Shown: positions 24,595-43,666 of the stretch, one piece after another
How positions within the stretch are numbered: position 1 is the first letter of the stretch
Layout: every line of letters starts with the position of its first letter
From: Clavibacter sp.
Lineage (GTDB): Bacteria > Actinomycetota > Actinomycetes > Nanopelagicales > Nanopelagicaceae
Reading direction: 5' to 3'
NCBI GenBank assembly: GCA_003569145.1
Contig: BGOH01000006.1
Coordinates: 19,129 to 83,128 of the forward strand
DNA length: 64,000 bases
Made by a program: the position numbers and the translations under genes
Notes under the pieces: model-generated
The model's database searches: none
What the model was told of the DNA's origin: nothing
The model's input: only the letters and a program-made list of their open reading frames with translations

Positions 24595-25669
24595 ATGACT
24601 AGAGCCTTAGAGCAACGCGAAAAGCGAGCCAGAATCAAGGCTTTACTTGAATCAAAAGGCCTTGATGCTCTCATTTTAAAGAAGGGAGCCAATGTTGCTT
24701 GGATTATTGGCGGCAGAGCTCATATTCCAACAACTCTTGAACTAGCTTGTCTTGATGTAATTGTTTATAAGGATCGAATCGTTGTTGTAACTAACAAGAT
24801 AGAGGCGCCAAGGCTTGAGGCAGAAGAGTTATCAGGTGATGAAGAGTTAATTGTCATTAATTGGTTTGAGGGTAGAGATCAACAGCTGCCATCAGGTGAA
24901 AAGATTGGTATTGATGGTCCTGACAATAATCGCATTAATTTATCGGCTGAGGTTGAAGAGTTAAGAAGATCTCTAAATTCTTTTGAAGTTGATCGCCTAA
25001 AGAAGATTGGTAGCGATGCGGCTAAGTCTTTAGGTGAATCAATGTTGAAAATCTCACCAAAGATGAGTGAGGTTGCAGCAGCTGGAGTGATTGCAGAAAA
25101 TCTCTGGGCACATAATTTAGAGCCAGTGGTTTTATTAGTTGCTGGTAGTGAGCGTATTGAAAGTTTTAGACATCCACTGCCAACTACCAGTCTTATCGGC
25201 TCGCTTTTTATGGGAGTTATTTGTGCTAGAAGAAAAGGTTTAATTGCTAGCGTGACGAGAATTCTTTCATTTAATTCTCTTTCTAAAGAGATAGAGCAGA
25301 GATATCAGGGACTTCTAAATGTTGAAGCAGCATTTTTTAGCGGCACAAAGGTTGGAGCTACATATGGCCAAGCTTTCAAATCTGGTGAGGTTGAATATCT
25401 AAAGCAAGGATTTGCAAGAGATGAATGGAGTAAGCATCATCAAGGTGGTCCAACTGGATATCTGCCAAGAGACTTTCCCCGCTCATGAAAAGAGCTCTCA
25501 AGTAATAGGTGTTAATAACGCCATTGCCTGGAACCCAAGTGCTGCCGGGATTAAGGTTGAAGACACCTTGATCACCACCCCTACCGGCTTTGAGATTATT
25601 ACCTCTGATCCAAGCTGGCCCAGCGTTGAAATAGCTGGCAGAGAGCGCCCAGATATCGCTCGCCCTTGA
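24595..25669 (+). pseudogene. M24 (creatinase/prolidase)-fold protein, frame broken in a C4 run (25477-25480)
   Basis: ORFs 24595-25488 and 25412-25669 join into one about 357-aa protein if one C is removed (...GYLPRDFPAHEKSSQVIG...). The canonical M24 metal ligands seem mostly substituted, judged by an eye alignment against map. Confidence 0.7.
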
Positions 25670-25701
25670 CCTAAAAGTTATAAAAAAGAGGTAAAAAAGC
25701 G

Positions 25702-25729
25702 TTGACCGAGCTCGTTTAGGGCATAAGAC
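25702..25729 (+). promoter_or_regulatory. Candidate promoter of the sugar/sulfonate island
   Basis: TTGACC (25702-25707), 16 nt and TAAGAC (24-29). The -10 element is weak. Confidence 0.35.
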
Positions 25730-25742
25730 TCAGGCAATTGAG

Positions 25743-25755
25743 GTGGTCTGACCAC
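25743..25755. promoter_or_regulatory. Perfect FadR/GntR-type palindromic operator GTGGTC-T-GACCAC
   Basis: The 6-1-6 perfect palindrome contains the TGGTnnnACCA core typical of the FadR subfamily. It lies just downstream of the putative -10 and 33 nt before the first island gene. A FadR-type regulator is encoded in the same cluster (31550-32269). Confidence 0.6.
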
Positions 25756-25787
25756 TTCAATAACGGCCGGAAGGAAGTCTTATTTAG

Positions 25788-26894
25788 ATGCTCCGCTACG
25801 GAATTATCGGCATGGGCGCCATGGGCCGTGAGCATGCCGAAAACTTATCTTTTATCGAGGGCGCATCAGTTACTGCAATCAGCGATCCAGATTCTGGTTC
25901 CAGAGAACTAGCAATTAAGCAGCTAGGAGAGTCAGTAAAAGTATTTACCGATCATAGGCAGCTTCTAGATTCCGGCTTAGTGGATGTAGTGATCATTGCA
26001 ACCCCAAACTTTACTCACGTTGATATTTTGGAAGATGCGCTTAAGACATCACTTCATGTCTTTATTGAAAAACCACTCTGCACCACAATTGAAGATTGTT
26101 TAAAAGTTATTAAGTGGTCAGAAAATAGAAGTGGCTTAGTTTGGATGGGCCTTGAATATCGTTACATGCCGCCAGTTGCTGAGTTGATCTCTATTGTCCA
26201 TAGTGGGGGAGTTGGGCAAGTTCAACAAGTCTCTATCAGAGAACATCGCGAACCTTTCTATCCAAAAGTTGGCAATTGGAATCGATTCACATCTAAAACT
26301 GGTGGAACTCTCGTTGAGAAGTGCTGCCATTACTTCAATCTCATGGATTACATCGCTAATGAGCGCCCAAATCGAGTATTTGCCTCCGGTGGGCAGAGAG
26401 TTAATTACCTCGATGAGAGCTATGACGGAGTTAAGGCAGATATGCTCGATAGCGCTTATGTGATTTTGGAATATCCAAGTGGAAAAAGAGCGATGCTAGA
26501 TCTCTGTATGTTTGCTGAAAATACCGTTGATAAAGAACATATCTCAGTAACGGGAAGTGAGGGCAAAGTTGAATCATTTCTGCCATCACTTGAGCTGCGT
26601 TATGGCAAGAGAAGCGCAGTTGGAAACTTTAAGCAGTGGAGCCATGATGCTTCAAAGCCAAAAGTTGAATCAAGAAAAGTTTGGGATGAGAGCATTAAAT
26701 ACAATGGATTTCACTATGGGGCTTCATATCTTGAACACTTAAAGTTCTTTAACGCGATTAAGAGCGGAAAAGGCCCAGATGTGAGCCTGGAGGATGGACT
26801 TAGAAGCGTTGCATCAGGTCTAGCGGCTCAGATGAGTATTGCCCAGGGGCGCCCGGTAGCAATGAGTGAAGTATTGCCAGAGGGGTGGAATTAA
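25788..26894 (+). CDS. Gfo/Idh/MocA family NAD(P)-dependent oxidoreductase
   Basis: The 368-aa ORF has an N-terminal Rossmann motif (MLRYGIIGMGAMGREHA) and the EKP motif (FIEKPL). Confidence 0.85.
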   Translation: MLRYGIIGMGAMGREHAENLSFIEGASVTAISDPDSGSRELAIKQLGESVKVFTDHRQLLDSGLVDVVIIATPNFTHVDILEDALKTSLHVFIEKPLCTTIEDCLKVIKWSENRSGLVWMGLEYRYMPPVAELISIVHSGGVGQVQQVSIREHREPFYPKVGNWNRFTSKTGGTLVEKCCHYFNLMDYIANERPNRVFASGGQRVNYLDESYDGVKADMLDSAYVILEYPSGKRAMLDLCMFAENTVDKEHISVTGSEGKVESFLPSLELRYGKRSAVGNFKQWSHDASKPKVESRKVWDESIKYNGFHYGASYLEHLKFFNAIKSGKGPDVSLEDGLRSVASGLAAQMSIAQGRPVAMSEVLPEGWN

Positions 26895-28303
26895 TGTCTA
26901 GCTGCACTCTCATTCCTCTTGCTCGTCCTACATTTGATGTCTTAGCTGCGCAGAAGTTCTTTGATTCTGCTCGTGATCTATTAGGTGAAATTGGCGCTAC
27001 TGTAAATGGCCCAACATCACTTGTAATGACTCCAGAGGACACCGCTGGCGCTGAGGCAAATCTAAAAACTGATGAGAAGTTATACATTCTATTTAATGCA
27101 TCTTTTGCTGATGCCTCTGCAGCTGTATCTCTTCTTTCTAAAGTTTCAGGTGATGTGCTTTTGTGGTCGGTTAGAGAGTTTGGCGAGATAGGAGATCGAC
27201 TTCTACTTAATTCAATGTGTGGATCAAATCTTGCAGCCCATGCACTTCGAGTAAATGGAAAGAGGATTACTCATCTTCATGGAAATCCTGATGAGGCGCA
27301 TGTTAGAGATGCTCTCTCATCTGCTCTTGCTGGAAAGATGCCAGATGTTGGTCAACCGCAGAAAGTCAGCGGTCAATTAGCAGATTTAGATAAGGTTAAA
27401 GCAGCCCTTTCTAAGTTGAGTGGTTTAACGATTGGGGCAATTGGTGATGCGCCGGCTGGTTTTACTCCCTGCACCTACGATGAAGAGGCGCTGAAGAAAT
27501 CATTTGGCTTAAATATCATTAATAAATCAATTCCTGAAATCTTTGCAGATATTGCAGCTGTGCCACTTGATAAAGAGAGCGCAGAATATAAGGATGCTTG
27601 TCAGGCTCAGCCATCTCTTAAAAATGTTCCTGAGAAAGAGGCTCGAGTTAATGCCAGCACTAGGGTTGCGCTGGATAATTGGATAAGGGCTAATGATTTA
27701 TCAGCAATTGCTATGCGCTGTTGGCCTGATTTTGCAGTTGATTTAGGAGCTTGCCCTTGCGGGGCGATGGGAAGAACGGCAACGAGTGGAACTCCAGCAG
27801 CCTGTGAGCGCGATGTCTATGGCGCAGTAACTATGCTGCTTTTAGAGGCGCTTGGCTCTGGAACAAATTACTTAGTAGATACCGTGGATTTAGAAGAAGA
27901 TGAGAACATTATTCGAATCTGGCATTGTGGTTCTGCTTCAACCACTCTTGCTGTTGATCCAGATAATGCAACGCAGTTCATACACTGCAATAGAAAGCTA
28001 GGTGTGGCCGGGAACTTCCCCTTGAAGACCGGTCCGGTTGTTCTGGTAAGGCTGGATACCGATATCGATCCAGCAAATCAGAGCAAACTCCGATTAGTAA
28101 TGACTAGTGGTGAATCACTATCTGCTCCTAATCGGTTCCAAGGTAATACCGCAACAGTTCGTACATCTGCGCCAGCACGGCAATTGATAAATGGGCTAAT
28201 CCATAATGGATTTCCTCATCACACAGTTGTAGCTTGGAAAGACATACGAGCAGAAGTCCGCAGGATGGCGGAATATTTGGCCATTCCGCTAACCGAGTGG
28301 TAA
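26894..28303 (+). CDS. L-fucose/L-arabinose isomerase-like protein (substrate unknown)
   Basis: The about 469-aa ORF is called from size and general FucI/AraA-like features, recognised by eye only. Its ATG overlaps the upstream stop (TAATG). Confidence 0.5.
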   Translation: MSSCTLIPLARPTFDVLAAQKFFDSARDLLGEIGATVNGPTSLVMTPEDTAGAEANLKTDEKLYILFNASFADASAAVSLLSKVSGDVLLWSVREFGEIGDRLLLNSMCGSNLAAHALRVNGKRITHLHGNPDEAHVRDALSSALAGKMPDVGQPQKVSGQLADLDKVKAALSKLSGLTIGAIGDAPAGFTPCTYDEEALKKSFGLNIINKSIPEIFADIAAVPLDKESAEYKDACQAQPSLKNVPEKEARVNASTRVALDNWIRANDLSAIAMRCWPDFAVDLGACPCGAMGRTATSGTPAACERDVYGAVTMLLLEALGSGTNYLVDTVDLEEDENIIRIWHCGSASTTLAVDPDNATQFIHCNRKLGVAGNFPLKTGPVVLVRLDTDIDPANQSKLRLVMTSGESLSAPNRFQGNTATVRTSAPARQLINGLIHNGFPHHTVVAWKDIRAEVRRMAEYLAIPLTEW

Positions 28304-28343
28304 TCACATGATTCACCACAGACCCTCGAATAAGGAGAAATAA

Positions 28344-29783
28344 ATGAAACAAAAGATGAATGCAAAAGCATTCAAAGCTCTGATTGCAATGGCTTTTGCA
28401 ATTAGCGCATCTGTTGTTCCACTCTCCCAGAGCTTTGCCGCTGGCGAATCTCTTGGAAAGTCATGTCCAACAGCGGGAGTTATGACTGGAACTAAGTCAA
28501 CTTCTCTTATCTGCGTTAAAGGTGAAAATGGAAAGCAAACATGGCAGCGTGTAAGGCTTGCTGCTGGTAATGGCCGTCCAGTTGCTAACTTAACGCCACC
28601 AAAAGGTGAAATTGAATTCTGGCACTATCGCCCAGAGGACAAGGTTCACTTCGAAAAAATAATTGGTAATTTCGAAGCGAAGTACCCTGGAACAAAGATC
28701 ACCCAAGTAATCAAGACCACTACTGATTACAACGCCACTGCGCGTGTTCAAATTCTTGCCAACCCAAAGGCAGCGCTATTTGCTGCTGCTAGAGGCTCTA
28801 TTTTCAATGACTTTGTAAATAGCGGTCTTCCACTTGATTTAAGCAATCAAAGATGGGTAAAGCAGAATCTAGTTGCCAAGGGCCTAACAGCAGGAACAAT
28901 TGATGGAAAAGTTCTTGGTATTCCTTATCACTATCTCTTCAACAACCCGGTCTATAACACAGATCTATGGGCTAAAGAGAAGTGGACAACTCCAACCAAT
29001 CTTTCAGGATGGGTTGCTTGGTGTAAGGATGCAAAAGCGAAGGGATATGTACCTCTAGCATGGCCAGGGGCAACTCGTGGACAAGCTGCACAGATCTCCA
29101 ACTCTGCACTCATGAACTCAGCAGGAAGCTATGATGAACTTGCTAAAAATCTTGCGGATCTAAACTCAGGCAAGATTGATCTGACTTCAACTTGGTTTAA
29201 AGGCGTAGCTGATATTTATGTCAAGCTTCGTAACGCAGGTTGCTTCCCAGATAATCCAACAGGTGTTACCGAAGCAGCTGCATATAACTTGTTTGCAACA
29301 GGAAAGTCGCCAATTCTTCCAATTGGAACATTTGCGATGGGTTCCATAAAGAATCTCAACCCTGCGCTAACTGGCAAGATGCAGTTGATGAGCATGATTC
29401 TTACCGACGGCAAAGTTGTTGCTGAGGGAATTATGAACAACACCTTCAACCTAAGCGTGAATTCAAAGTCAAGTTCTCGTGATCAAAAGATTGCGACAGC
29501 TTTCTTGTCCTATCTCGCAACTGGACCAGTGGCTCAGATTTATGCAAATGGAACCACACAGCATCTCAACGTTCTGGATATTGATTATTCATCAAACGTT
29601 GACTTGCTAAACACTTCTTCATTCCAGGCCAAGAACACCATGTTGGCACCTCGCTTCTTGATTCTGAATACCGCTGTCTCTGACTTAACTCAGGATGCAC
29701 TTATTCAGATTGTGGGAGGCAAGAGCCCAGATGATGTTCTGCCTGATTTCTCTAAGCAGATCAAGCAGAAATTGGCTGGCTGA
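28344..29783 (+). CDS. ABC transporter extracellular solute-binding protein (CUT1 sugar family) with an extra Cys-containing N-terminal segment
   Basis: The 479-aa ORF has a signal peptide ending SFA-AG, followed by about 45 aa containing two Cys, and then a family-1 SBP fold. It precedes two MalF/MalG-type permease genes. Confidence 0.85.
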   Translation: MKQKMNAKAFKALIAMAFAISASVVPLSQSFAAGESLGKSCPTAGVMTGTKSTSLICVKGENGKQTWQRVRLAAGNGRPVANLTPPKGEIEFWHYRPEDKVHFEKIIGNFEAKYPGTKITQVIKTTTDYNATARVQILANPKAALFAAARGSIFNDFVNSGLPLDLSNQRWVKQNLVAKGLTAGTIDGKVLGIPYHYLFNNPVYNTDLWAKEKWTTPTNLSGWVAWCKDAKAKGYVPLAWPGATRGQAAQISNSALMNSAGSYDELAKNLADLNSGKIDLTSTWFKGVADIYVKLRNAGCFPDNPTGVTEAAAYNLFATGKSPILPIGTFAMGSIKNLNPALTGKMQLMSMILTDGKVVAEGIMNNTFNLSVNSKSSSRDQKIATAFLSYLATGPVAQIYANGTTQHLNVLDIDYSSNVDLLNTSSFQAKNTMLAPRFLILNTAVSDLTQDALIQIVGGKSPDDVLPDFSKQIKQKLAG

Positions 29784-29806
29784 TTAGCTCGCCAACAAAA
29801 ATCGGA

Positions 29807-29833
29807 ACCGCTCCCACTTCACGTGGGAGCGGT
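29807..29833 (+). other. Intercistronic stem-loop between the SBP and permease genes
   Basis: A perfect 11-bp stem pairs ACCGCTCCCAC with GTGGGAGCGGT around a 5-nt loop, with no U-tract. It resembles the mRNA-stabilising hairpins common after ABC SBP genes. Confidence 0.6.
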
Positions 29834-29884
29834 ATTCGAGCTGCCGGCAAGAGGCGAAGAAAAGATGCTCCTATCTATTATCTG

Positions 29885-30733
29885 ATGGGAGCGCCAGCAC
29901 TTTTTCTCTTTCTTGCCTTCTATCTCTATCCTGCTCTACAAAATCTACAATTTGCGACAAGGAGATGGGATGGAATCTCAGAGCCCGAGGCAGTTGGATT
30001 TAGAAACTTTACAAATCTCTTAACTAATGATGATCTTTTCTACAAGACACTTGGAAATAATTTAGAATTCACTTTTTTAGTAGTACTTTTTCAAACCGCT
30101 TTTTCATTACTTTTTGCAATATATTTAGTAAATAATTCAAAGATAAATGTATTTCTAAGAACATTATTTTTCTTTCCCACGATTCTCTCATCGGTATCTG
30201 TGGGTATGATTTGGCTCTTTCTTTATGACCCAAATTTTGGTGCGATTAATCTTTTCTTTAACAAATTAGGCTTAGAAAGTTTTGCGCTAAATTGGTTGGG
30301 CAGTGAAACCAGCGCCTTATACGCCATTGCGTTTTCGCAAGTTTGGTTTCATACAGGCCAGATGATGGTGGTTTACATCGCAGGATTGCAACAAATTCCT
30401 AAAGAGCTGTATGAAGCAGCAGAGGTAGATGGAGCCTCACGCTGGAAGCAGTTCACCAGTGTTACCTGGCCAATGGCTATGCCAACAACCTTAGTGGTTA
30501 TGGCATACACCACAATTCAATCATTTAGAGCCTTTGATTTGATCATGGTGATGACTAACTCAACAGCTGGGCCAAATAACTCAACAAGTATTTTTAGTAC
30601 TTTGGTCTACTTCACATTGTTTAATGAGTTGCGTTTAGGATATGCCGCCGCTCAGACGATATTTATGGTTATAACTATGTTGCTAATTACCTGGATTCAA
30701 CGCCGATCCTTCGGCAGAAGGTATGAGAGATAG
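29885..30733 (+). CDS. Sugar ABC transporter permease (MalF/UgpA-like); the start codon is uncertain
   Basis: The 282-aa ORF has 6 TM segments and an EAA loop (ELYEAAEVDGASRWKQF). The in-frame upstream sequence encodes a typical R/K-rich N-terminus but has no canonical start (see finding). Confidence 0.85.
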   Translation: MGAPALFLFLAFYLYPALQNLQFATRRWDGISEPEAVGFRNFTNLLTNDDLFYKTLGNNLEFTFLVVLFQTAFSLLFAIYLVNNSKINVFLRTLFFFPTILSSVSVGMIWLFLYDPNFGAINLFFNKLGLESFALNWLGSETSALYAIAFSQVWFHTGQMMVVYIAGLQQIPKELYEAAEVDGASRWKQFTSVTWPMAMPTTLVVMAYTTIQSFRAFDLIMVMTNSTAGPNNSTSIFSTLVYFTLFNELRLGYAAAQTIFMVITMLLITWIQRRSFGRRYER

Positions 30734-31550
30734 CATGTTATATAGGTTTTCGCGCTTCACCTCACTCTTTACTTTTGCTTCTCTCATTTTGGTGCCTTCA
30801 ATGATTGTGATCATGGGCTCTTTTAAGACTGATGCTGAGGTATATAACAAGCCTCTCTCTTTGCCGGATACCTGGAATCTAGATAACTATAGACGGCTAC
30901 TAAGTGAGAGTGATCTTGAGATAAGCTTCCGTAATAGCGTTGTAGTCACAGGTTTATCAGTGTTAATTACATTGATATTTGCAAGTCTAGCTTCTTTTGC
31001 AATTGCCAGGATGATTACTGTGACAGGGAAAGTATTAGCCGCTCTCTTTGCTTTGGGATTAGCTATTCCAGCACAGATAAATATTGTTCCAGTTTATTAC
31101 ATATTCCGTGATTTAGGATTGACAAATTCTTTCTTTGGATTAGTGATTATAAATGTGACTACCACGCTTCCAATATCAATCTTCATTTTAACGGCTTTCT
31201 TCCGAGAAATTTCCAGGGAGATGTATGAGGCATCAGAGGTTGATGGAGCTTCGCCACTGCGAATTTATCGTTCCATAGCTCTACCTCTTTCTCGGCCAGC
31301 AATGGGAGCCACTGCAATATTTCTGTTTGTCATTAATTGGAACGATCTATTATGGCCACTTTTATTGATTCAAGAATCGGATAAGAAGACTCTGCCACTT
31401 GCGATGCTGGCCTATCGTGGCGAGTATTTTGTGAGTTTCTCAATGCTATTCACGGCAGTTATGGTCGCCTCGCTTCCGATGGTAATTATGTATTTAATGA
31501 TGCAGAAATCATTTGTTGCAGGTCTGACAGCCGGGGCGGTTAAAGGCTAA
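30723..31550 (+). CDS. Sugar ABC transporter permease (MalG/UgpE-like)
   Basis: The 275-aa ORF has an EAA loop (EMYEASEVDGASPLRIY). No ATPase gene lies in the cluster. Confidence 0.88.
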   Translation: MRDSMLYRFSRFTSLFTFASLILVPSMIVIMGSFKTDAEVYNKPLSLPDTWNLDNYRRLLSESDLEISFRNSVVVTGLSVLITLIFASLASFAIARMITVTGKVLAALFALGLAIPAQINIVPVYYIFRDLGLTNSFFGLVIINVTTTLPISIFILTAFFREISREMYEASEVDGASPLRIYRSIALPLSRPAMGATAIFLFVINWNDLLWPLLLIQESDKKTLPLAMLAYRGEYFVSFSMLFTAVMVASLPMVIMYLMMQKSFVAGLTAGAVKG

Positions 31551-32269
31551 TGAGCAACATTGCGCCGATAATCGGTAATCCGCCAAGACTGCAAGGACAA
31601 GTGCGCTTGCTTCTTGATCATATTGAGAGCCAAGGCCTAAAAGGTGGTGACCGTCTGGAATCAGAGCGAGAACTAGCCAAAATCCTTGGGATTAGCCGCC
31701 CATCACTTCGAGAAGCGATTCAGATTCTGCAAGTTCAGGGACGCCTTAGAGCTAAACATGGAATTGGAATTTTCGTTCTAGATCAAGCAGACGGGGAGAA
31801 ATTAAGAGAGTCTTTAAGGGCTGCGCAACATCGCATTGAAGAGTTGTTTCAAATGCGCGAAATTTTGGAAGCCCCAGCTGTTGAGTGGGCTGCTGAGAGA
31901 AGAAGCGAAGAGCAATTGGCTGAGATGATATTGGCAGCAAAAGCACTTAATCAGGCTATTGCAAGAAAACCTGTTGACTTTGAGAATTTAAGACGTCTAG
32001 ATATGGAATTTCATTTAACAATTGTCAGAAGTGCTCAGAATCAATTCTTGAATCAAACGCTTGGAACTTTGCAAGAAATTATGTATCACTCAATGGATAA
32101 CACTTTAAAGCTTCCTGGTCGTGTGGATAGCTCAGAGCATGAACACGGAATGATCTTGGATGCGATTGAAAAGCAAGATTCAATTACTGCTCGCTTGATG
32201 ATTATTCAACATATCCATAATGCCCGTGATGCTTGGCAGAAGTACTTAAAGAAACAGAGTGATATATGA
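31550..32269 (+). CDS. GntR-family transcriptional regulator, FadR subfamily (FCD domain)
   Basis: The 239-aa ORF has a winged-helix N-terminus (ESERELAKILGISRPSLREAIQIL) and an all-helical C-terminal domain. Confidence 0.85.
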   Translation: MSNIAPIIGNPPRLQGQVRLLLDHIESQGLKGGDRLESERELAKILGISRPSLREAIQILQVQGRLRAKHGIGIFVLDQADGEKLRESLRAAQHRIEELFQMREILEAPAVEWAAERRSEEQLAEMILAAKALNQAIARKPVDFENLRRLDMEFHLTIVRSAQNQFLNQTLGTLQEIMYHSMDNTLKLPGRVDSSEHEHGMILDAIEKQDSITARLMIIQHIHNARDAWQKYLKKQSDI

Positions 32270-33111
32270 GCCAAGTTCTATGCGTGGGTGTAGCAACAGT
32301 GGACAATATAGTTTTGGTGGATAAATACCCTGCTGCAAATCAAAGAGTTGTAGCACTTGATTCAACTCGAGCAGTAGGGGGCCCTGCAACAACTGCTGCA
32401 GTAACACTAGCAAGGCTAGGTATTGAGGTTTCGCTATCTTGTGTAATCGGAGATGATGAAGAGGGAAGATTTATCCTTGAAACTCTAAAAAATGAAGGTG
32501 TAGATACAAGTCATGTTGTAGTCGATGCAAATGTTAGAACTGCTAGAGGAACGATAGTTGTTTCAAAGAGCGAACAGAGCCGAGCGATAATGGTTATGCC
32601 TCATGATCAAATTCCTAAAAAGCCCCTTGATACCAGCAAATATCAATGGATTCACGTTGATCAAGCTGGAATGAGGGCGCTAAAGACTTGGGGAATTAGC
32701 AGAGGTGGATCTGCCAAGCTTTCCATCGATATTGGCTATGCCACTGAAGGATTAAATCCTGGTGATTATGATCTTTATGCGCCATCTGAAAATATAACAA
32801 CAGATACAACAAGCGCAGTCAAAGATAAGAACGTTGTTGTTATTTCCCAAGGCGAAAAAGGAAGTCTTTACTGCGATGGCCTTAGCTCTGGAAGTGTTCC
32901 TGCAATCAATACAGAAATTTTGAGCACACTTGGTGCTGGTGATGTTTTTCATGGCGCACTTGTTGCTGCGCAAGTTTGGAATAAAGAAATTAGCGAAGCA
33001 GTATTGATAGCAAATACTGTGGCAGGTCTTTCATGTAGAGGCCTTGATGGACAAAGTGGAATTCCTAGAAAGAGTGAGCTGGATGCCTATTTGGCTAAGG
33101 CGAAGATCTGA
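32266..33111 (+). CDS. PfkB/ribokinase-family sugar (acid) kinase
   Basis: The 281-aa ORF has the GAGD motif (TLGAGDVFHGAL) and an N-terminal GG dipeptide region. Confidence 0.85.
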   Translation: MSQVLCVGVATVDNIVLVDKYPAANQRVVALDSTRAVGGPATTAAVTLARLGIEVSLSCVIGDDEEGRFILETLKNEGVDTSHVVVDANVRTARGTIVVSKSEQSRAIMVMPHDQIPKKPLDTSKYQWIHVDQAGMRALKTWGISRGGSAKLSIDIGYATEGLNPGDYDLYAPSENITTDTTSAVKDKNVVVISQGEKGSLYCDGLSSGSVPAINTEILSTLGAGDVFHGALVAAQVWNKEISEAVLIANTVAGLSCRGLDGQSGIPRKSELDAYLAKAKI

Positions 33112-33148
33112 CGGGGATAATGGGTAATCGAGATATGGAAAGGAAGTA

Positions 33149-33451
33149 ATGATGGCCAAGGTGCCTGACTTTCTCCTCCACCATGATGGCGATTCAGTTG
33201 CTGTTGCAAATGATGATTTGCAACCTGGCACACTGCAAGGGCTATCAGTGAAGGAGCAGACTGCACATACTGCAGTATTAAATGAGCCAATTCCCTTAGG
33301 GCATAAGTTCGCACTTCGCGATCATGCAGAGGGCGAGGCGATAGTTAAATATGGAATTAAAGTAGGGATTGCATCTAAGGCAATCAAGAAGGGCGATTAC
33401 GTTCACACACACAACATGAGGAGTTATCGATGGGAAGCAAGCCGCGCTTAA
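33149..33451 (+). CDS. UxaA-family small subunit (SAF domain), SuyA-like
   Basis: The 100-aa ORF has the SAF signature IPLGHKFAL...GEAIVKYG..IG.A...I.KGDYVHTHN. Confidence 0.8.
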   Translation: MMAKVPDFLLHHDGDSVAVANDDLQPGTLQGLSVKEQTAHTAVLNEPIPLGHKFALRDHAEGEAIVKYGIKVGIASKAIKKGDYVHTHNMRSYRWEASRA

Positions 33452-34596
33452 CTGGATACCGTCGCCCTGATGGGTCGATGGGTATCCGTAATCACGTCAT
33501 CATCTTGCCAGTTGATGACTTATCAAATGCTGCTGCAGAAGCGGTAGCAAAAGTAGTGCCAGGCACTCTTGCCTTGCCTCATAGCTATGGACGCCTGCAA
33601 TTTGGCGAAGATCTTGAACTTACTTTCCGCACACTTATCGGCACCGGCCTAAATGGCAATGTCGCAGCGGTAGTAGTTATTGGAATTGAACCTAATTGGA
33701 CCCAGAGAGTTGCCAATGGCATCGCTAAATCTGGAAAACCGGTTGCTTCATTTTCTATTGAAGGCAAAGGCGATCTTCAGACAATTGCTGATGCAGCAAG
33801 AGTTGCTCAAGTCTTCTTGCAAGATGCATCAGAGATTGTCCGCGAGAGCGCAAGTGAAGGTGATCTAATCCTTTCAATTAAATGCGGAGAGTCAGATACC
33901 ACATCAGGTCTTGGCTCATGTCCAACCACATCAGAGGCAGTAGATCGTTGGGTTGCAGCTGGAGGAACAGTTTTCTTTGGAGAAACTTCAGAGCTAACTG
34001 GCGGCGAACATCTAATTGCAGATCGCTGCATAGATGATGCTTGCCGAAATCTCTTCCAAACTACCTATGACAACTACATCAAAGTAATTGAATCAACCGG
34101 TGCCAACTTGCTTGGTTCACAACCAACGCAAGGAAATATCGCAGGTGGTCTAACAACTATTGAAGAAAAAGCTCTAGGAAATATCGCTAAGACCGGATCT
34201 GTTCCAGTGGTTGGCGTATTAGCACCAGCTGAGGCGCCACCAAGAAATAAGCCAGGTCTTTATTTCATGGATACTTCATCAGCTGCTGCTGAATGTGTAA
34301 CTCTTATGGCGGCAGCAGGGGCTGTGATTCACCTATTTCCAACCGGACAAGGAAATGTGATTGGTAATCCAATTGAGCCAGTTTTGAAGTTAACTGCCAA
34401 TAAGAAGACCGCTGCATCAATGCCAGAACACATCGATCTTGATGTCTCTGGTCTATTGCGTCAGGAATACAACTTGACCAAAGCTGGCGACATGATGATG
34501 GATGTAATTGAGCGAACTGTTAATGGAAGACTCTGCGCTGCAGAGGCTCTTGGACATCGCGAATTCACCTTCACCAAGCTCTATATCAGCGCCTAG
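33430..34596 (+). CDS. UxaA/GarD-family large subunit, SuyB-like (dehydratase or sulfo-lyase)
   Basis: The 388-aa ORF starts GYRRPDGSMGIRNHVIILP. AGGAG precedes the ATG, and the gene overlaps the small-subunit gene by 22 nt. Confidence 0.8.
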   Translation: MGSKPRLTGYRRPDGSMGIRNHVIILPVDDLSNAAAEAVAKVVPGTLALPHSYGRLQFGEDLELTFRTLIGTGLNGNVAAVVVIGIEPNWTQRVANGIAKSGKPVASFSIEGKGDLQTIADAARVAQVFLQDASEIVRESASEGDLILSIKCGESDTTSGLGSCPTTSEAVDRWVAAGGTVFFGETSELTGGEHLIADRCIDDACRNLFQTTYDNYIKVIESTGANLLGSQPTQGNIAGGLTTIEEKALGNIAKTGSVPVVGVLAPAEAPPRNKPGLYFMDTSSAAAECVTLMAAAGAVIHLFPTGQGNVIGNPIEPVLKLTANKKTAASMPEHIDLDVSGLLRQEYNLTKAGDMMMDVIERTVNGRLCAAEALGHREFTFTKLYISA

Positions 34597-34634
34597 AAAT
34601 AACCCTCGATTACCCGAAGAAAAAGGACTGGTTC

Positions 34635-35588
34635 GTGATATTAATTAGTGAAGATGTTTGGAGCGCAGACTTTGAAGCGCTTGCTAACTCCTTTCCATTA
34701 ATTCGCGAACCAGAACTTTGGAGCAACGCAGAAGAGTTAAAGGCAAAGCTTGAATCTGCAACAGCATTAGTGGTTAGAAATCGAACTCAAGTAAGTAGAG
34801 ACTTGATTGCATCTGCTAAGAATTTAAAAATTATTGCAAGGGCCGGCGTAGGTCTAGATAATATTGATGTAAAAGCTGCCGATGAATTTGGCGTGGTGGT
34901 GAGCGCTGCTCTTGGCATAAATGCCACCGCTGTGGCTGAAGAGACGCTAGCTATGGCGCTTGCTCTATCTAGAAAGTTAATTGAACTAGATTCAAGCACA
35001 AGAGCAGGGCAATGGAATAGAAAAGCAGGAGTTGAGATCTCAGGAAAAACCTGGGGACTTTTAGGATTTGGCGCAACGGCTAGAGCAACTGCAGAACTTC
35101 TAAGAGGTTTTAAAGTAAAAGTCTTGGCCTATGATCCATTTGCAAAACCAGAGCAGAGTTATCTAGATTCCATAAATTGCCAGATGAGCTCACTTGATGA
35201 TGTGATTTCAAACTCGGACTTCATATCCGTCCATCTGCCAGCTACTAGTGAGACTAAAGAGATTATTGATAGTAAGAAGCTCTCGGTTATGAAAAAGAGC
35301 GCTCTGCTAATTAGCGTGGGGCGCGGTGAGGTAATTAACGAAGCTGACCTAGAGCAAGCTCTAAGAGATGGCGTTATTGCAGGAGCTGGCCTTGATGTTA
35401 GAGCTCAAGAACCTCCAAAGGATAAGCGCTTTATAGATCTTGATAACGTTGTTTTAGCTCCGCATATCGCTGGTATTACCCATGAAAGTCAGGCTGCAAT
35501 AAATAGAGTGTTAGTAAGTGAGATAAGAGCAGCCCTAAGTGGCCAGGTGCAAAGTTATGCCGTTGGCGCAGTAAAGCAGGCAAAGTAA
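34635..35588 (+). CDS. D-isomer-specific 2-hydroxyacid dehydrogenase (PGDH/GyaR-like)
   Basis: The 317-aa ORF starts with GTG. It has a GLLGFGATA Rossmann motif and the catalytic R/E/H pattern (SVGRGEV...APHIAG). Confidence 0.85.
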   Translation: MILISEDVWSADFEALANSFPLIREPELWSNAEELKAKLESATALVVRNRTQVSRDLIASAKNLKIIARAGVGLDNIDVKAADEFGVVVSAALGINATAVAEETLAMALALSRKLIELDSSTRAGQWNRKAGVEISGKTWGLLGFGATARATAELLRGFKVKVLAYDPFAKPEQSYLDSINCQMSSLDDVISNSDFISVHLPATSETKEIIDSKKLSVMKKSALLISVGRGEVINEADLEQALRDGVIAGAGLDVRAQEPPKDKRFIDLDNVVLAPHIAGITHESQAAINRVLVSEIRAALSGQVQSYAVGAVKQAK

Positions 35589-36598
35589 TGGCAATCTCTA
35601 TAGCTAGAGCCCTTGCTCATGCCACATCACTTCTTATTAAAGCCGGAGTCAATGAAGTTAATTCAGAAAAAACTGCTCGCGCCATAGTCACCTCTGATGT
35701 TTGGGGTAATCCCAGCCATGGACTTATGCGACTTCCTTTCTACTTGCAGAGATTGAGTCAGGGCGGGGTTAATCCAAAGGCTGAATTAAAAGTAATTTCA
35801 GAATTTGGCTCCACAATTTCACTTGATGGTCAAGATGGATTAGGACACTGGCAACTTCTTGATGGCGCGCAGATTGGCGTAGCTAAAGCAAAGCAGAGCG
35901 GAATCTCACTTGTTTCAATTGCTAACTCAAGCCACTGCGGGGCTCTTGGGGTTTATCTCTATCCGGCACTTGATGCAGAAATGATTTCAATGATTTTTAC
36001 CAATGGCCCAGCGGTGATGCCAGCAGTTGGTGGAAATTCACCAATTCTTTCCACCAGCCCTATCGCTTCAGGAATCCCATCAAATCCTCCAATGATTATT
36101 GATCTTTCAACATCTGCTGTTGCAAGAGGAAAAATAGCTAGCGCTGCTAAAGCTGGAGGATCGATTCCAGCGGGCTGGGCAGTTAATGAAAAAGGGGAAG
36201 CAATTACTGATGCCAAGCAAGCTCTTATGGGAATGCTTGCTCCACTTGGTGGAGCAAAGGGATTTGCACTTGGTTTGATGGTTGAGTCACTCTCAGCTGG
36301 CCTGAGTGGAGGATCTTTATCTAGAGCTATTCCAGATATGTTTAATCCAGAGGATGATAAAAAAGCGCAGGGGATTTCTCACACGGTAATAACTATTAAT
36401 CCTGCAAGCATCGGAAAAGATTCTAAAGAGGGGCTTGATGAACTTGCCGCAAGTATTACCGCAAGTGGGGGAAGAGTTCCAGGAAGCAAGCGAGTAAGTC
36501 CTAATAATTTAGGAAGTGGTGAGATAACCCTTGCTGATGCGGTAATTAGCGATCTTAACTCTTGGAGCCAAAAGCTTGGCTTAGAGAACATCTCATGA
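35588..36598 (+). CDS. Ldh_2 (malate/L-lactate/sulfolactate dehydrogenase) family oxidoreductase, ComC-like
   Basis: The 336-aa ORF has the motifs PSHGLMRLP, NSSHCGALG, DLSTSAVARGK and GGAKGFAL. Confidence 0.85.
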   Translation: MAISIARALAHATSLLIKAGVNEVNSEKTARAIVTSDVWGNPSHGLMRLPFYLQRLSQGGVNPKAELKVISEFGSTISLDGQDGLGHWQLLDGAQIGVAKAKQSGISLVSIANSSHCGALGVYLYPALDAEMISMIFTNGPAVMPAVGGNSPILSTSPIASGIPSNPPMIIDLSTSAVARGKIASAAKAGGSIPAGWAVNEKGEAITDAKQALMGMLAPLGGAKGFALGLMVESLSAGLSGGSLSRAIPDMFNPEDDKKAQGISHTVITINPASIGKDSKEGLDELAASITASGGRVPGSKRVSPNNLGSGEITLADAVISDLNSWSQKLGLENIS

Positions 36599-37563
36599 AG
36601 TTAACATCTAGCAATCTAAAGCATTTTTCAGTCATCTCTATATTTGTTGCTCTGGCATATGGGATAAGTCAATTGCAGGGCGCAATTTCTCCGCTATTTA
36701 TCTCACTGCTCTTTGGATTAGCTTTAGTTAATAGTGGTCTCTGGGGCGATGGCGGCAGAGAGGCTGCAAACTTTGCAGCAAAGAGATGTATGCGCCTTGG
36801 GGTAGTACTTCTTGGCTTTCAGATCTCAATTGACAAGTTCATTGAAGTTGGCCTAAAGGGGCTCTTGGCAGTAATTATTATTGTTGCCGTTGTTTTTCTA
36901 GGTCTTAGATATGCAGCTATGAAAAGTGGCTCCAGTGAATCTCTCTCTACTCTTATTGCAGGCGGCTTTGCAATCTGCGGTGCTACTGCAATAGCTGCGA
37001 TTAGTTCAACTCGAAAGAGTGAAGAGCGAGATGTTTCCTATGCTGTGGCACTTGTTGCCCTCTGTGGCACACTATCGGTTTTTGTCATTCCACCACTTGC
37101 AAATCTCTTATCGCTAAGTGATGCAACTGCAGGTGCTTGGATTGGCGCTGCAGTTCACGATGTTGGGCAAGTTATTGCCACCGCATCACTTATGGGCCCT
37201 GCCGCACTTGATAGCGCGGTGATTGTAAAGTTAACAAGAGTTGTTCTACTTATTCCACTAATTCTCTTGCTTTCCTATAAAACAAGTGAGAAGAAATCCT
37301 TAAAGAGCGCTACTCCAGTATTTGTTATTGGCTTTGTTGCCTGCGCCTTAATTGTTAATGCCCTCGCACTTCCAGAGAGCGCAATTAATCTAGGAAAAGA
37401 GAGTTCAAAGATCTTCTTATCTCTTGGTTTATTAGGAATGGGTCTTTCGGTGAAGTGGGCATCAATTAAGGCTCTTGGGGCAAAACCACTTGTTTTAGGG
37501 CTGCTTGCCTGGGTGGTTTGCGGGGGATTTGCCTTGGCTGTCATCACCTCCGTTGGGCTCTAG
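36595..37563 (+). CDS. YeiH/UPF0324 (putative sulfate exporter, PSE) family membrane protein
   Basis: The about 322-aa polytopic membrane protein has an ATG overlapping the upstream stop (ATGA). The ORF-track TTG at 36562 is less likely. Confidence 0.75.
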   Translation: MKLTSSNLKHFSVISIFVALAYGISQLQGAISPLFISLLFGLALVNSGLWGDGGREAANFAAKRCMRLGVVLLGFQISIDKFIEVGLKGLLAVIIIVAVVFLGLRYAAMKSGSSESLSTLIAGGFAICGATAIAAISSTRKSEERDVSYAVALVALCGTLSVFVIPPLANLLSLSDATAGAWIGAAVHDVGQVIATASLMGPAALDSAVIVKLTRVVLLIPLILLLSYKTSEKKSLKSATPVFVIGFVACALIVNALALPESAINLGKESSKIFLSLGLLGMGLSVKWASIKALGAKPLVLGLLAWVVCGGFALAVITSVGL

Positions 37564-37649: not shown

Positions 37650-37871
37650 TTGGCTAAAAAAGACGGTGCAATCGAAATCGAAGGCACTGTAGCTGAAGCG
37701 CTACCGAATGCGATGTTTCGCGTAGAGCTCACCAATGGACATAAAGTGCTTGCACATATCAGCGGAAAGATGCGACAGAACTACATTCGTATCTTGCCTG
37801 AAGATCGTGTGATTGTAGAACTTAGTCCATATGACCTCACCAGAGGTCGCATCATTTATCGGTATAAGTAA
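37650..37871 (+). CDS. infA: Translation initiation factor IF-1
   Basis: The 73-aa ORF starts with TTG and reads [29 protein letters not shown]. Confidence 0.97.
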
Positions 37872-37887
37872 GAAAGGGAGTCTGATC

Positions 37888-38001
37888 GTGAAGGTTAAAC
37901 CAAGCGTGAAGAAGATTTGCGATAAGTGCAAAGTCATTCGTCGTAATGGTCGCGTTATGGTTATTTGCGACAATCTCCGACATAAACAACGCCAGGGTTA
38001 A
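37888..38001 (+). CDS. rpmJ: 50S ribosomal protein L36 (zinc-binding form); not in the supplied ORF track
   Basis: GTG-started 37 codons read [37 protein letters not shown], preceded by GGGAG. Confidence 0.95.
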
Positions 38002-38044
38002 ACCTGGTTATAAAAAAAACTAAATATAAGAACGCGTGGCGCGA

Positions 38045-42065: not shown

Positions 42066-43666
42066 ATGGGGCAGATAAATGTAGTTGGAATTGAGTATGC
42101 CCTCTCAGATGGTCGGGTTTTACTTAGCGATGTTTCTTTTCGGGTCGGCGAAGGATCAAAGGTTGCTCTGATTGGGCCTAATGGATCTGGCAAGACAACT
42201 CTTTTTCGAATGATTGCCGGAGATATAACTGCTGATGCTGGTCAGATAATTATTAATGGCGGCCTTGGTGTGATGCGCCAATTTATTGGCTCGATTCGAG
42301 ATGAATCAACGGTGAGAGACTTATTGATTTCAGTATCACCGCTTCGAATCAGGCAAGCTGCAGAGAAACTTAAAGAGGCTGAAATTGCAATGGCTGCTAA
42401 TAACTCTGAGAGGCAGCAGATGGCATATGCCCAAGCACTATCGGATTGGGGAGATGCTGGGGGATATGAACAAGAAGTGCTCTGGGATATTGCAGTTAAT
42501 AACGCGCTAGCAAGAGCTTTGATCGAGTATCTGATCGATTAGTTAATTCACTCTCTGGTGGAGAGCAAAAGCGCCTTGTCCTTGAAGTATTACTTAATGG
42601 ACCGGAGGAGGTATTAATCCTTGATGAGCCTGATAACTATCTAGATGTTCCAGCAAAGAGATGGCTTGAGGAGCAGATAAGAATTTCAAAGAAAACAATC
42701 CTATTTATTAGCCATGATCGTGAGTTATTAGCAGCAACTGCTACCAAAGTTGTCACTCTTGAACAAGGTGTTAGTGGCAATAGCGCCTGGATTCATGGTG
42801 AGGGCTTTAATACTTGGCATGATGCAAGAAAAGCTCGTAATGCTCAATTCGCTCAAGTACTAGAGCGTTGGCAAGATGAACATAAGCGTCTAAAAGAACT
42901 AGTTCTAACGCTGCAATGGCAAGCAGCTTCATCGCCAGATATGGCTTCAAGATATCGAGCAATGCAAACCAGGCTTAGAAAGTTTGAAGAGATCGGCCCG
43001 CCGCCTCCGCCGCCTCTAGAACAAGATGTGAAGGTTAATTTAAAGAGCGGGAGAACTGGCGAGCGCGTAGTGACCTGTAAGGATTTAACTTTAGAGAATC
43101 TAACTGAACCATTTACCTTTGAAATCTATTATCAAGACCGGGTAGCAATTCTTGGAAAGAATGGCTCTGGAAAATCTCACTTTTTAAGAAGGCTTTCAGG
43201 TGATGAGAGCGTTAGATATAGCGGTGAGTTTAAACTCGGTGCAAGAGTAATTCCAGGTTTTTTTGCCCAGACTCATGCCCATCCTGAATTTGTAGGAAAG
43301 ACTTTGTTAGAAATCTTGTGGCAGGAAAACTCCTTGCAACTAGGGGCAGCTAAATCTGTTCTTGGTAGATATGAATTGGCCCAACAAGCAGAGCAGCAAT
43401 TCACATCTTTATCTGGCGGACAGCAGGCGCGTTTCCAAGTTTTATTATTAGAACTTGCCGGCGATACTTTGTTATTACTAGATGAGCCAACCGATAACTT
43501 AGATCTGGCAAGTGCTGAAGCGCTAGAGCGAGCACTCGATGCTTATCAAGGAACTGTTATTGCTGTGACCCATGATCGCTGGTTTGCTAAAGGATTTACT
43601 AGATTTTTGATATTTGGCGCAGAGGGTGCGGTCTATGAGAGCCCTGAACCAGTCTGGAGCCATTAA
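42066..43666 (+). pseudogene. ABC-F family ATPase (two ABC domains), frame broken by one missing nucleotide within 42502-42540
   Basis: Domain 1 has Walker A (GPNGSGKTT) in frame 3. Its signature LSGGEQKR, Walker B (LILDEPDNYLD), the linker and domain 2 (GKNGSGKSH...LSGGQQAR...LLLDEPTDNLD) are in frame 2. Confidence 0.88.

Follow-up and report, generated by a model that had tools for sequence, protein, structure and literature searches.

Sulfoquinovose (SQ) is produced at a rate of about 10 billion tonnes per year, and the Nanopelagicaceae are the most abundant freshwater bacterioplankton. The two meet in the DNA described here, a stretch of 64,000 nucleotides (hereafter the window) from contig BGOH01000006.1 of assembly GCA_003569145.1, in which five genes at 33149–37563 probably form the terminal, sulfur-releasing module of a single SQ-catabolism operon; the operon spans about 13 kb, and its host is a Nanopelagicaceae (acI) bacterium from fresh water. 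The closest described counterpart of this block is the module of SlcC, ComC and the sulfolactate sulfo-lyase SuyAB, with or without the exporter SuyZ, of Chromohalobacter salexigens, Paracoccus pantotrophus and P. wurundjeri (cluster 2), which is made up of the same five protein families. The literature assigns secondary degraders mainly to the Alpha- and Betaproteobacteria, and reviews hold that the genes of sulfoglycolysis and desulfonation are seldom co-inherited and that SQ acquisition by freshwater bacteria is largely unknown (PMC13436972, PMC12421959). The initial annotation of the window knew of no parallel for a layout joining the two, but precedents exist: genome analyses of Thermotogae and Chloroflexi have noted clusters in which the transaldolase pathway (sulfo-TAL) accompanies SuyAB (PMC9594981), and experiments on Paracoccus wurundjeri have shown sulfofucose degradation in tandem with SlcC-ComC-SuyAB, a coexistence in one bacterium that was called 'unusual' (PMC12421959).

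Set beside the Paracoccus-type module, the window SuyB is 57–60% identical to SuyB of Paracoccus, Cupriavidus pinatubonensis and Sinorhizobium and shares the replacement of cysteines by Leu, Arg and Ile, and the suyAB loci of Paracoccus are accompanied, as in the window, by a GntR-family regulator and an exporter of the putative sulfate exporter (PSE) family; in contrast, the window SlcC, ComC and exporter are only 28–36% identical to the Paracoccus proteins and belong to an actinobacterial lineage, suyA and suyB overlap by 22 nt, and the block is joined in one operon with SQ uptake and sulfoglycolysis rather than with a transporter for C3 sulfonates or cysteate. The Embden–Meyerhof–Parnas-type sulfoglycolysis (sulfo-EMP) of Arthrobacter sp. 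AK01/AK04 (PMC8873060, PMC10755693) shares the sulfoquinovosidase SqgA, an ATP-binding cassette (ABC) importer and a PfkB kinase with the window, and a YihT-type class I aldolase with sister acI clusters. Sulfolactate is excreted by Arthrobacter, whose isomerase is of the YihS type and whose SLA dehydrogenase is GabD/SlaB, whereas the acI clusters have an isomerase of the SftI/SqvD type and no sulfolactaldehyde (SLA) dehydrogenase gene, and add SlcC, ComC, SuyAB and the exporter, so that mineralisation is predicted; the window, in addition, is without the aldolase. With the yih system of Escherichia coli (YihQ, YihR, YihS, YihV, YihT and YihU), the acI clusters have in common the chemistry of an isomerase, a 1-kinase and a class I aldolase, but they are without the GH31 enzyme YihQ, the mutarotase YihR, YihS and YihU, their kinase is without N109 and R138, and their predicted end product is sulfite instead of 2,3-dihydroxypropane-1-sulfonate (DHPS). 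The sulfo-TAL clusters of Thermotogae and Chloroflexi also place sulfoglycolysis and SuyAB in one cluster, which predicts the use of all six SQ carbons, and carry an SqvD-type isomerase as in acI; there, however, a transaldolase cleaves sulfofructose and no kinase is needed, whereas the acI clusters are a hybrid form of sulfo-EMP that possesses the kinase, SqgA, SlcC/ComC and the PSE exporter, together with a YihT aldolase in the sister clusters.

Open reading frame (ORF) listing and Pfam searches bear out the tightly packed block that had first drawn attention: five co-directional genes on the plus strand, namely suyA, suyB, slcC, comC and a gene for a YeiH/SuyZ-family exporter, with overlaps between neighbours of 22, 1 and 4 nt. 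Eight further genes on the same strand lie upstream, comprising an M24-like gene and all those that the initial annotation had listed (a Gfo/Idh/MocA protein, a FucI-like isomerase, a binding protein, two permeases, a GntR/FCD regulator and a PfkB kinase), and the whole string extends over 24595–37563. The nearest homologues of the window proteins are proteins of metagenome-assembled genomes (MAGs) from 'Candidatus Nanopelagicaceae' and the acI cluster; the proteins themselves are deposited as GBL22987–GBL23003 under a MAG mislabelled 'Clavibacter sp.', and their automatic annotation already includes 'sulfofructose kinase' and '(2R)-sulfolactate sulfo-lyase subunit beta'. The identical gene order recurs on four independent contigs, and 454 blocks of the public assembly collection list the exact SuyB sequence of the window; the gene string, present on many independent metagenome contigs, is therefore no assembly artefact.

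The lyase is the centre of the block. Its small subunit matches the SAF domain barely above the Pfam cut-off (22.7 bits against 21) and shows 41% identity with Cupriavidus SuyA and 48% with a Rhodococcus protein, while the large subunit matches GD_AH_second (E = 5e-32) and GD_AH_C (E = 6.5e-79). The two subunits cover residues 6–79 and 108–477 of the galactarate dehydratase model and therefore represent a true split of a GarD/UxaA-type protein, with a 22-nt gene overlap that is kept in Actinobacteria. When SuyB was compared by tblastn with annotated plasmids and chromids, identity was 75% to the Rhodococcus homologue and 56–60% to those of Cupriavidus pinatubonensis, Paracoccus, Sinorhizobium and Methylobacterium, and dropped to 41% or less for all remaining split UxaA hydrolases. 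In a neighbor-joining tree, with support counted on bipartitions, the window protein, other acI proteins and those of Rhodococcus and Arthrobacter join the SuyB of Cupriavidus, Paracoccus and Sinorhizobium in 100/100 bootstraps, and this clade leaves out the sugar-acid split enzymes, UxaA and GarD, so that the large subunit does not nest among the sugar-acid dehydratases. Four cysteines are conserved throughout the superfamily, sulfolactate sulfo-lyase excepted, and SuyAB is the sole heteromeric member among those characterised (Watanabe et al., PMC6336799). In our alignment, columns 148, 187 and 223 are Cys in UxaA, GarD and two bacterial split dehydratases, and L/I, R and I in every member of the SuyB clade, the window reading L, R and I.

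Gene context points the same way. The homologue in C. pinatubonensis adjoins hpsN, hpsO, a major facilitator superfamily (MFS) transporter gene and an hpsP-like gene, which is the DHPS-pathway context where SuyAB was identified (PMC9594981, PMC12890257). In P. versutus, the gene order around the homologue is GntR-suyA-suyB-'putative sulfate exporter'. This corresponds to the suyAB-suyZ pair of P. pantotrophus that Rein et al. reportedly described in 2005. The split architecture alone is not diagnostic, since split SAF and UxaA genes occur in sugar-acid contexts as well: at about 40% identity, one such gene lies beside a 2-keto-3-deoxygluconate (KDG) permease gene on an E. albertii plasmid, and one in Bacillus sp. 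F19 adjoins genes for a short-chain dehydrogenase/reductase, a lactonase-like protein and a fumarylacetoacetate hydrolase (FAH) family protein, and fucU. Like the window pair, these enzymes are encoded by one gene for a SAF protein and one for a GD_AH protein, but they differ from that pair in their identity of no more than 40%, in retaining the dehydratase cysteines, in their sugar-acid surroundings and in forming a separate clade. Phylogeny, signature residues and conserved synteny thus agree with the C–S lyase of SuyAB type first proposed for this locus, and support a large subunit that is SuyB and would convert (R)-sulfolactate to pyruvate and sulfite.

An oxidative sugar-acid route, which the initial annotation had offered as its competing reading and in which a Gfo/Idh/MocA enzyme would oxidise a neutral sugar, a UxaA-type enzyme would dehydrate the product and a PfkB kinase would phosphorylate a KDG-like compound, can draw on the split hydrolases of E. 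albertii and Bacillus sp. F19 and on the bare name 'UxaA family hydrolase' that the PGAP annotation gives to these large-subunit proteins, but we regard it as highly improbable and reject it on phylogeny, cysteine signature and SqgA identity, given that the window protein is just 40% identical to those enzymes and outside their group in 100/100 bootstraps, that the three cysteines common to UxaA, GarD and the split dehydratases are replaced, that the supposed dehydrogenase is, by sequence, the SqgA glycosidase with its sulfonate pocket intact, that the isomerase matches SftI alone, and that no KDPG/KDG-type aldolase is present.

The two genes that follow suyB supply a pair of dehydrogenases. 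The first product matches 2-Hacid_dh and 2-Hacid_dh_C (E = 1.4e-55) and is 36% identical to the homologue in the P. aestuarii cluster and 48% to the Rhodococcus one; the second matches its Ldh_2-family model at E = 1e-85, has M. jannaschii ComC (2X06) as its best match in the Protein Data Bank (PDB), and is 31% identical to its P. aestuarii counterpart. Taken together, the pair is 46–48% identical to the pairs of Rhodococcus and Arthrobacter. The validated C. salexigens enzymes fall in the same families (SlcC, PF00389 + PF02826; ComC, PF02615), and the cluster induced in P. wurundjeri reads regulator-SuyA-SuyB-SlcC-ComC (PMC12421959 supplement), the order found in the window. The trio of lyase, hydroxyacid dehydrogenase and Ldh-family protein recurs in P. 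aestuarii, with a 'putative sulfate exporter', and in Rhodococcus koreensis and Arthrobacter sp. CG_A4, the latter with a Cons_hypoth698 protein. Since SQ-derived sulfolactate has the S (D) configuration and SuyAB needs the R (L) configuration (PMC13436972, PMC12421959), a D-specific and an L-specific dehydrogenase together fit the requirement exactly, and families, gene order and synteny all agree with the earlier proposal of two sulfolactate dehydrogenases of opposite stereospecificity. The exporter, for its part, matches PF03601 (Cons_hypoth698) at E = 6.9e-61, is 32% identical to the Arthrobacter homologue, and resembles the products of the 'putative sulfate exporter' genes that adjoin suyAB in Paracoccus at 28–29% identity (E = 1e-23), so that the SuyZ-family assignment, too, rests on genuine homology.

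One tie between this block and a sulfo-sugar is the gene that had been read as a Gfo/Idh/MocA oxidoreductase and that we reassign to SqgA, an NAD+-dependent sulfoquinovosidase of family GH188. A phmmer search of the PDB returned ArSqgA (8QC3; E = 1e-101, 344 bits) and FlSqgA (8QC2; 339 bits), structures whose codes are given in PMC10755693, with the next unrelated match at 121 bits. All seven functional residues of ArSqgA are kept (K107, Y136, R166, K172, E189, H193 and H321), among them both sulfonate-binding side chains, Arg166 and Lys172. As far as sequence evidence can establish it, the role of the protein would be to free SQ from sulfoquinovosyl glycerol and other glycosides. The adjoining isomerase has a single NCBIfam match, to the SftI model NF048012 (E = 1.6e-81); it has no match in the PDB and only distant ones, at 33% identity or less, among plasmids. 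The kinases of acI clusters are 29–34% identical to E. coli YihV (29% for the window protein), and the catalytic motif TGAGDVFHGAL, GXGD included, is invariant between the window kinase and YihV; two of the three residues of the YihV sulfonate triad are missing from the window kinase in alignment, and the enzyme probably works like a sulfofructose kinase, yet is not a canonical member of the YihV family. No ABC ATPase gene accompanies the binding protein and permeases within the cluster, and no mutarotase (YihR or SqvB) was found in the acI SQ clusters. The GntR/FCD regulator is 45% identical to the Rhodococcus koreensis regulator that is transcribed divergently from suyAB. The presence of SqgA, the SftI match and the synteny of the cluster support the coupling of desulfonation to sulfo-sugar uptake that had been suggested from the outset; sequence evidence shows the identity of SqgA and SuyB and, for SlcC, ComC and the exporter, family membership and synteny, while the substrates of the importer, isomerase and kinase are those that context predicts.

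The route that emerges would begin with the import of SQ or sulfoquinovosyl glycerol by the ABC system and the release of SQ by SqgA, followed by isomerisation to sulfofructose by the FucI-like SftI/SqvD enzyme and phosphorylation to sulfofructose-1-phosphate by the PfkB kinase. An aldolase, which the window does not encode, would then yield dihydroxyacetone phosphate (DHAP) and (S)-sulfolactaldehyde, and the latter would be oxidised to (S)-sulfolactate by a dehydrogenase that is likewise not encoded there. SlcC would convert (S)-sulfolactate to sulfopyruvate, ComC would reduce this to (R)-sulfolactate, SuyAB would cleave it to pyruvate and sulfite, and the YeiH/SuyZ-family protein would export the sulfur oxyanion. 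Because the encoded pathway is incomplete at two steps, we consider complete mineralisation by the window organism likely rather than assured.

Table 1. Genes of the island at 24595–37563, with predicted functions (window coordinates; L004 is a comparison sequence).
Predicted product	Position	Strand	Features and basis
M24-fold (prolidase/creatinase-like) protein, first island gene	24595..25669	+	frameshifted by 1-nt insertion at 25473
SqgA, GH188 NAD+-dependent sulfoquinovosidase (predicted)	25788..26894	+	phmmer against PDB; residue conservation
FucI-like SQ isomerase, SftI/SqvD type, SQ to sulfofructose (predicted)	26885..28303	+	sole NCBIfam match NF048012
CUT1-type sugar ABC solute-binding protein, presumably for SQ or SQ-glycerol	28344..29783	+	SBP_bac_1; cluster position conserved
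ABC permease 1	29885..30733	+	BPD_transp_1 in orthologues on near-identical contigs; tblastn match to L004 permease
ABC permease 2	30723..31550	+	BPD_transp_1 in orthologues on near-identical contigs; tblastn match to L004 permease
GntR/FCD (FadR-subfamily) regulator within operon	31550..32269	+	GntR + FCD
PfkB-family kinase, most likely sulfofructose 1-kinase	32266..33111	+	PfkB; public annotation sulfofructose kinase
SuyA, small subunit of (2R)-sulfolactate sulfo-lyase (predicted)	33149..33451	+	100 aa; SAF domain
SuyB, large subunit of (2R)-sulfolactate sulfo-lyase (predicted)	33430..34596	+	388 aa; GD_AH_second + GD_AH_C
SlcC-type D-2-hydroxyacid dehydrogenase, predicted (S)-sulfolactate to sulfopyruvate	34635..35588	+	317 aa, GTG start; PF00389 + PF02826
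ComC-type Ldh_2 dehydrogenase, predicted sulfopyruvate to (R)-sulfolactate	35588..36598	+	336 aa; PF02615
YeiH/PSE-family membrane protein, putative SuyZ-like sulfite/sulfate exporter	36595..37563	+	322 aa from ATG; PF03601

How the window relates to other acI genomes was judged from the neighbourhoods of SuyB homologues together with a genome scan, from which three cluster types were defined. Type 1 comprises the M24-like gene, isomerase, binding protein, two permeases, GntR regulator, PfkB kinase, a DeoC-family aldolase, sqgA on the opposite strand, suyA, suyB, slcC, comC and the exporter; Type 2 is the layout of the window, with sqgA moved to the front and no aldolase; and Type 3 consists of the sugar half only, without sqgA and suyAB, followed by an unrelated GH88/KduI locus. 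The aldolase of Types 1 and 3 is 44–45% identical to E. coli YihT, with the Schiff-base Lys193 and the sulfonate/phosphate-binding Arg253 invariant. The genome scan, which used the alignment of the acI aldolase, returned 113 relatives, of which the best 80 loci were kept; nearly all of these belong to 'Ca. Planktophila' or to further Nanopelagicaceae, and complete genomes of strains in culture are among them. The gene sqgA comes after the aldolase (Type 1 order) at 63 of the 80, with the suyAB module following wherever the contig reads on, while seven loci were Type 3 and ten were truncated. A dehydrogenase for sulfolactaldehyde was absent from all acI cluster types within the 10-kb flanks that were read, a gap likewise reported from experiment for P. 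wurundjeri (PMC12421959). The initial annotation had listed an aldolase, a sulfolactaldehyde dehydrogenase and a sulfoquinovosidase as missing from the window; the first two are indeed absent, but the third is present in the form of SqgA.

Because the sister acI clusters carry the YihT-type gene, the lack of an aldolase in the window is a lineage-specific loss. In a comparison at low divergence, all cluster genes are under purifying selection, with ratios of nonsynonymous to synonymous substitution rates (dN/dS) of 0–0.12: 0.03 for the isomerase, 0.04 for SqgA, 0.05 each for SlcC and ComC, 0.07 for the M24-fold gene, 0.08 for the kinase and 0.11 for the exporter. Lineages so far diverged that their synonymous sites are saturated also share the aldolase-less layout. 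Since kinase, isomerase and SqgA are under selection in the aldolase-less clusters, the layout appears to be old and maintained, and since the kinase is constrained without an aldolase beside it, it is presumably functional and must rely on some other aldolase. SqiA, a class II sulfofructose-phosphate aldolase, is a member of the FbaA family (PMC9594981), which would make a housekeeping class II aldolase a reasonable candidate. Both the aldolase step and the oxidation of sulfolactaldehyde would then have to be provided from elsewhere in the genome, for example by a class II fructose-bisphosphate aldolase and a GabD-like dehydrogenase.

Several observations weigh against an SQ-mineralising operon of this kind. 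A tblastn search of the 64-kb window with the YihT-type protein of the sister clusters returned nothing, Pfam searches of about 30 other window ORFs revealed no aldolase, aldehyde dehydrogenase or sulfite oxidase, and a stand-alone acI gene of the YihT type was found at none of the best 80 loci (0/80), all copies lying within SQ clusters, so that the supply of an aldolase in trans found no confirmation in that scan. Opposite the sulfonate-binding triad of YihV, K27-N109-R138, the window kinase has R, V and a gap in the alignment; the remaining acI kinases have R, then A or T, and then a gap. Scores on curated models fall short of their cut-offs: the isomerase reaches 274 bits on NF048012 against an equivalog cut-off of 700 (its Type 1 orthologue, likewise matching only this model, is also below it), ComC reaches 191 bits against 500 on its best NCBIfam match, the L-sulfolactate dehydrogenase model NF040650 (the ComC homologue of the P. 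aestuarii cluster, at 193 bits, is similarly below), and the exporter reaches 170 bits against 233 on TIGR00698. The binding protein finds only generic sugar-binding proteins in the PDB, at 43 bits or less, and has no detectable similarity to any SQ-binding protein of solved structure. Finally, the SuyB references are same-species or same-genus proxies of the purified proteins (C. pinatubonensis HN-2, P. versutus and P. aestuarii).

Some of these observations can be assembled into a different account, in which the sugar half has been crippled in the window lineage by the loss of YihT, so that SQ glycosides are only hydrolysed or SQ only isomerised, or the lyase block serves sulfolactate or DHPS obtained in another way. 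This we consider unlikely. The aldolase is missing although 63 of the 80 related loci have it between kinase and sqgA, one-half variants exist in nature (Type 3), in Rhodococcus and Arthrobacter the same lyase module accompanies an aldehyde dehydrogenase and an MFS transporter and seems to serve C3 sulfonates, and several window genes contain single-base frameshifts; yet strong purifying selection acts on kinase, isomerase and SqgA in the aldolase-less clusters (dN/dS 0.03–0.08), their layout has been kept across synonymous-saturated lineages, the kinase retains its catalytic GXGD, and the operon has no transporter for sulfolactate or DHPS, its sole importer being a sugar-type ABC system.

A different sulfonated sugar or an SQ derivative might alternatively be the target, with a kinase substrate other than sulfofructose and a pathway still ending in sulfolactate and SuyAB, as in the known sulfofucose pathway that ends in SlcC/ComC-SuyAB (PMC12421959). 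The failure of every acI kinase to conserve the YihV triad, the isomerase score far below the SftI cut-off and the conserved M24-fold protein at the head of every cluster type would all be accommodated, but SqgA keeps those residues through which ArSqgA, in its complex with SQ, binds O2, O3, O4 and the sulfonate, and the aldolase of the sister clusters is closely homologous to YihT and has the sulfonate-binding Arg253. SQ is, moreover, by far the commonest sulfo-sugar, and we hold this alternative to be quite improbable.

Returning to SQ as the substrate, each of the enzyme families concerned has already been described, and what is new is their combination: GH188 SqgA, an SqvD-type isomerase, PfkB, a YihT aldolase or none, SlcC/ComC-SuyAB, a PSE exporter and an M24-fold protein. 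The cluster predicts that Nanopelagicaceae take an SQ glycoside to pyruvate, DHAP and sulfite by means of one operon, which, if true, would change who counts as an SQ mineraliser in lakes, and would matter further as acI-type bacteria are without assimilatory sulfate reduction (PMC12817590). We found no paper linking Nanopelagicales, Planktophila or Nanopelagicus to sulfoquinovose, sulfolactate or SuyAB, and a 2025 study of cultured Nanopelagicales treats their sulfur auxotrophy but not an SQ or sulfolactate pathway. The importance of the locus is mainly ecological, given the abundance of the host lineage, and is added to by the M24-fold gene and by the unexplained lack of an aldolase in one variant; the natural variants (full, sugar half only and aldolase-less) lend themselves to comparison as they stand, and the full cluster is present in several strains in culture, for example IMCC19121, IMCC26103 and the OZ2541xx isolates. 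A bolder proposition, which we consider unlikely, is that acI bacteria of the window type mineralise SQ fully although they have neither an aldolase dedicated to sulfofructose phosphate nor an SLA dehydrogenase that can be recognised, at least one step being carried out by an enzyme new to sulfoglycolysis, and that SQ also feeds sulfite to these bacteria, which are unable to reduce sulfate. Candidates for such an enzyme are the M24-fold protein, which is devoid of metal ligands, and a recruited housekeeping class II aldolase.

The M24-fold gene heads all three acI cluster types, and near-identical contigs carry it intact (357 aa). Its product has other residues in place of the Asp, Asp and His that act as metal ligands in prolidases; an AlphaFold model of it (pLDDT 84) matches the folds of prolidase, creatinase and DoeA at a TM-score of about 0.7, and a homologue search returned acI sequences only. 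Two other window genes are interrupted as well: that of an ABC-F ATPase (42066–43666) lacks one nucleotide at 42512 by comparison with contig L025 and so reads as two ORFs, and alanine racemase (48615–49756) is represented by separate N- and C-terminal ORFs. The three breaks together suggest either indel errors of the assembly or several pseudogenes.

The island is situated between map and infA/rpmJ (23773–24585 and 37650–38002) and interrupts the conserved string secY-adk-map-infA-rpmJ-rpsM, that is, a ribosomal-protein gene array. The same insertion site is retained in L013, a lineage diverged to synonymous saturation, and Type 1 islands occupy several unrelated sites. Type 3 is exemplified by L043 (10882–20847) and found also in L033, L037–L039, L073 and L081, all Planktophila genomes, where the M24 gene, isomerase, ABC importer, GntR regulator, kinase and YihT aldolase are followed by a GH88/KduI/glucuronyl-esterase locus. 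The products of the binding-protein and permease genes of the window (28344–31550) are 69–83% identical to those of contig L027, whose flanking genes are 95–100% identical, while contig L025 carries the transporter allele of the window, so that one species-level population harbours two transporter alleles, which suggests replacement of the cassette by recombination.

Outside acI, the clusters of Rhodococcus koreensis (L003, 8830–17199; GntR regulator, suyAB, aldehyde dehydrogenase, MFS transporter, beta-hydroxyacid dehydrogenase, slcC-like and comC-like genes) and Arthrobacter sp. CG_A4 (L007, 8836–18441; the same set plus the exporter), in both of which the aldehyde dehydrogenase gene stands directly 3' of suyB, look like systems of soil actinobacteria for the mineralisation of DHPS or sulfolactate and are the nearest relatives of the acI module. 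On a plasmid of 'Ca. Chlorohelix allophototropha' (L109, 3413–19262), an SqvD-like isomerase, 33% identical, is accompanied by a GabD-like dehydrogenase, sulfite reductase and siroheme synthesis, a pyrophosphate-dependent phosphofructokinase, a Gfo/Idh/MocA protein, a phosphoglycerate dehydrogenase-like enzyme and a threonine-synthase-like gene, an assemblage that may link the use of a sulfo-sugar with the assimilation of sulfite. A scan of the window for promoters and terminators was uninformative, promoter-like sites being fewer than in shuffled sequences. A perfect, GC-rich hairpin with an 11-bp stem lies at 29807–29833, in the gap that separates the binding-protein gene from the first of the two permease genes, and may be an mRNA-stabilising or attenuating structure.

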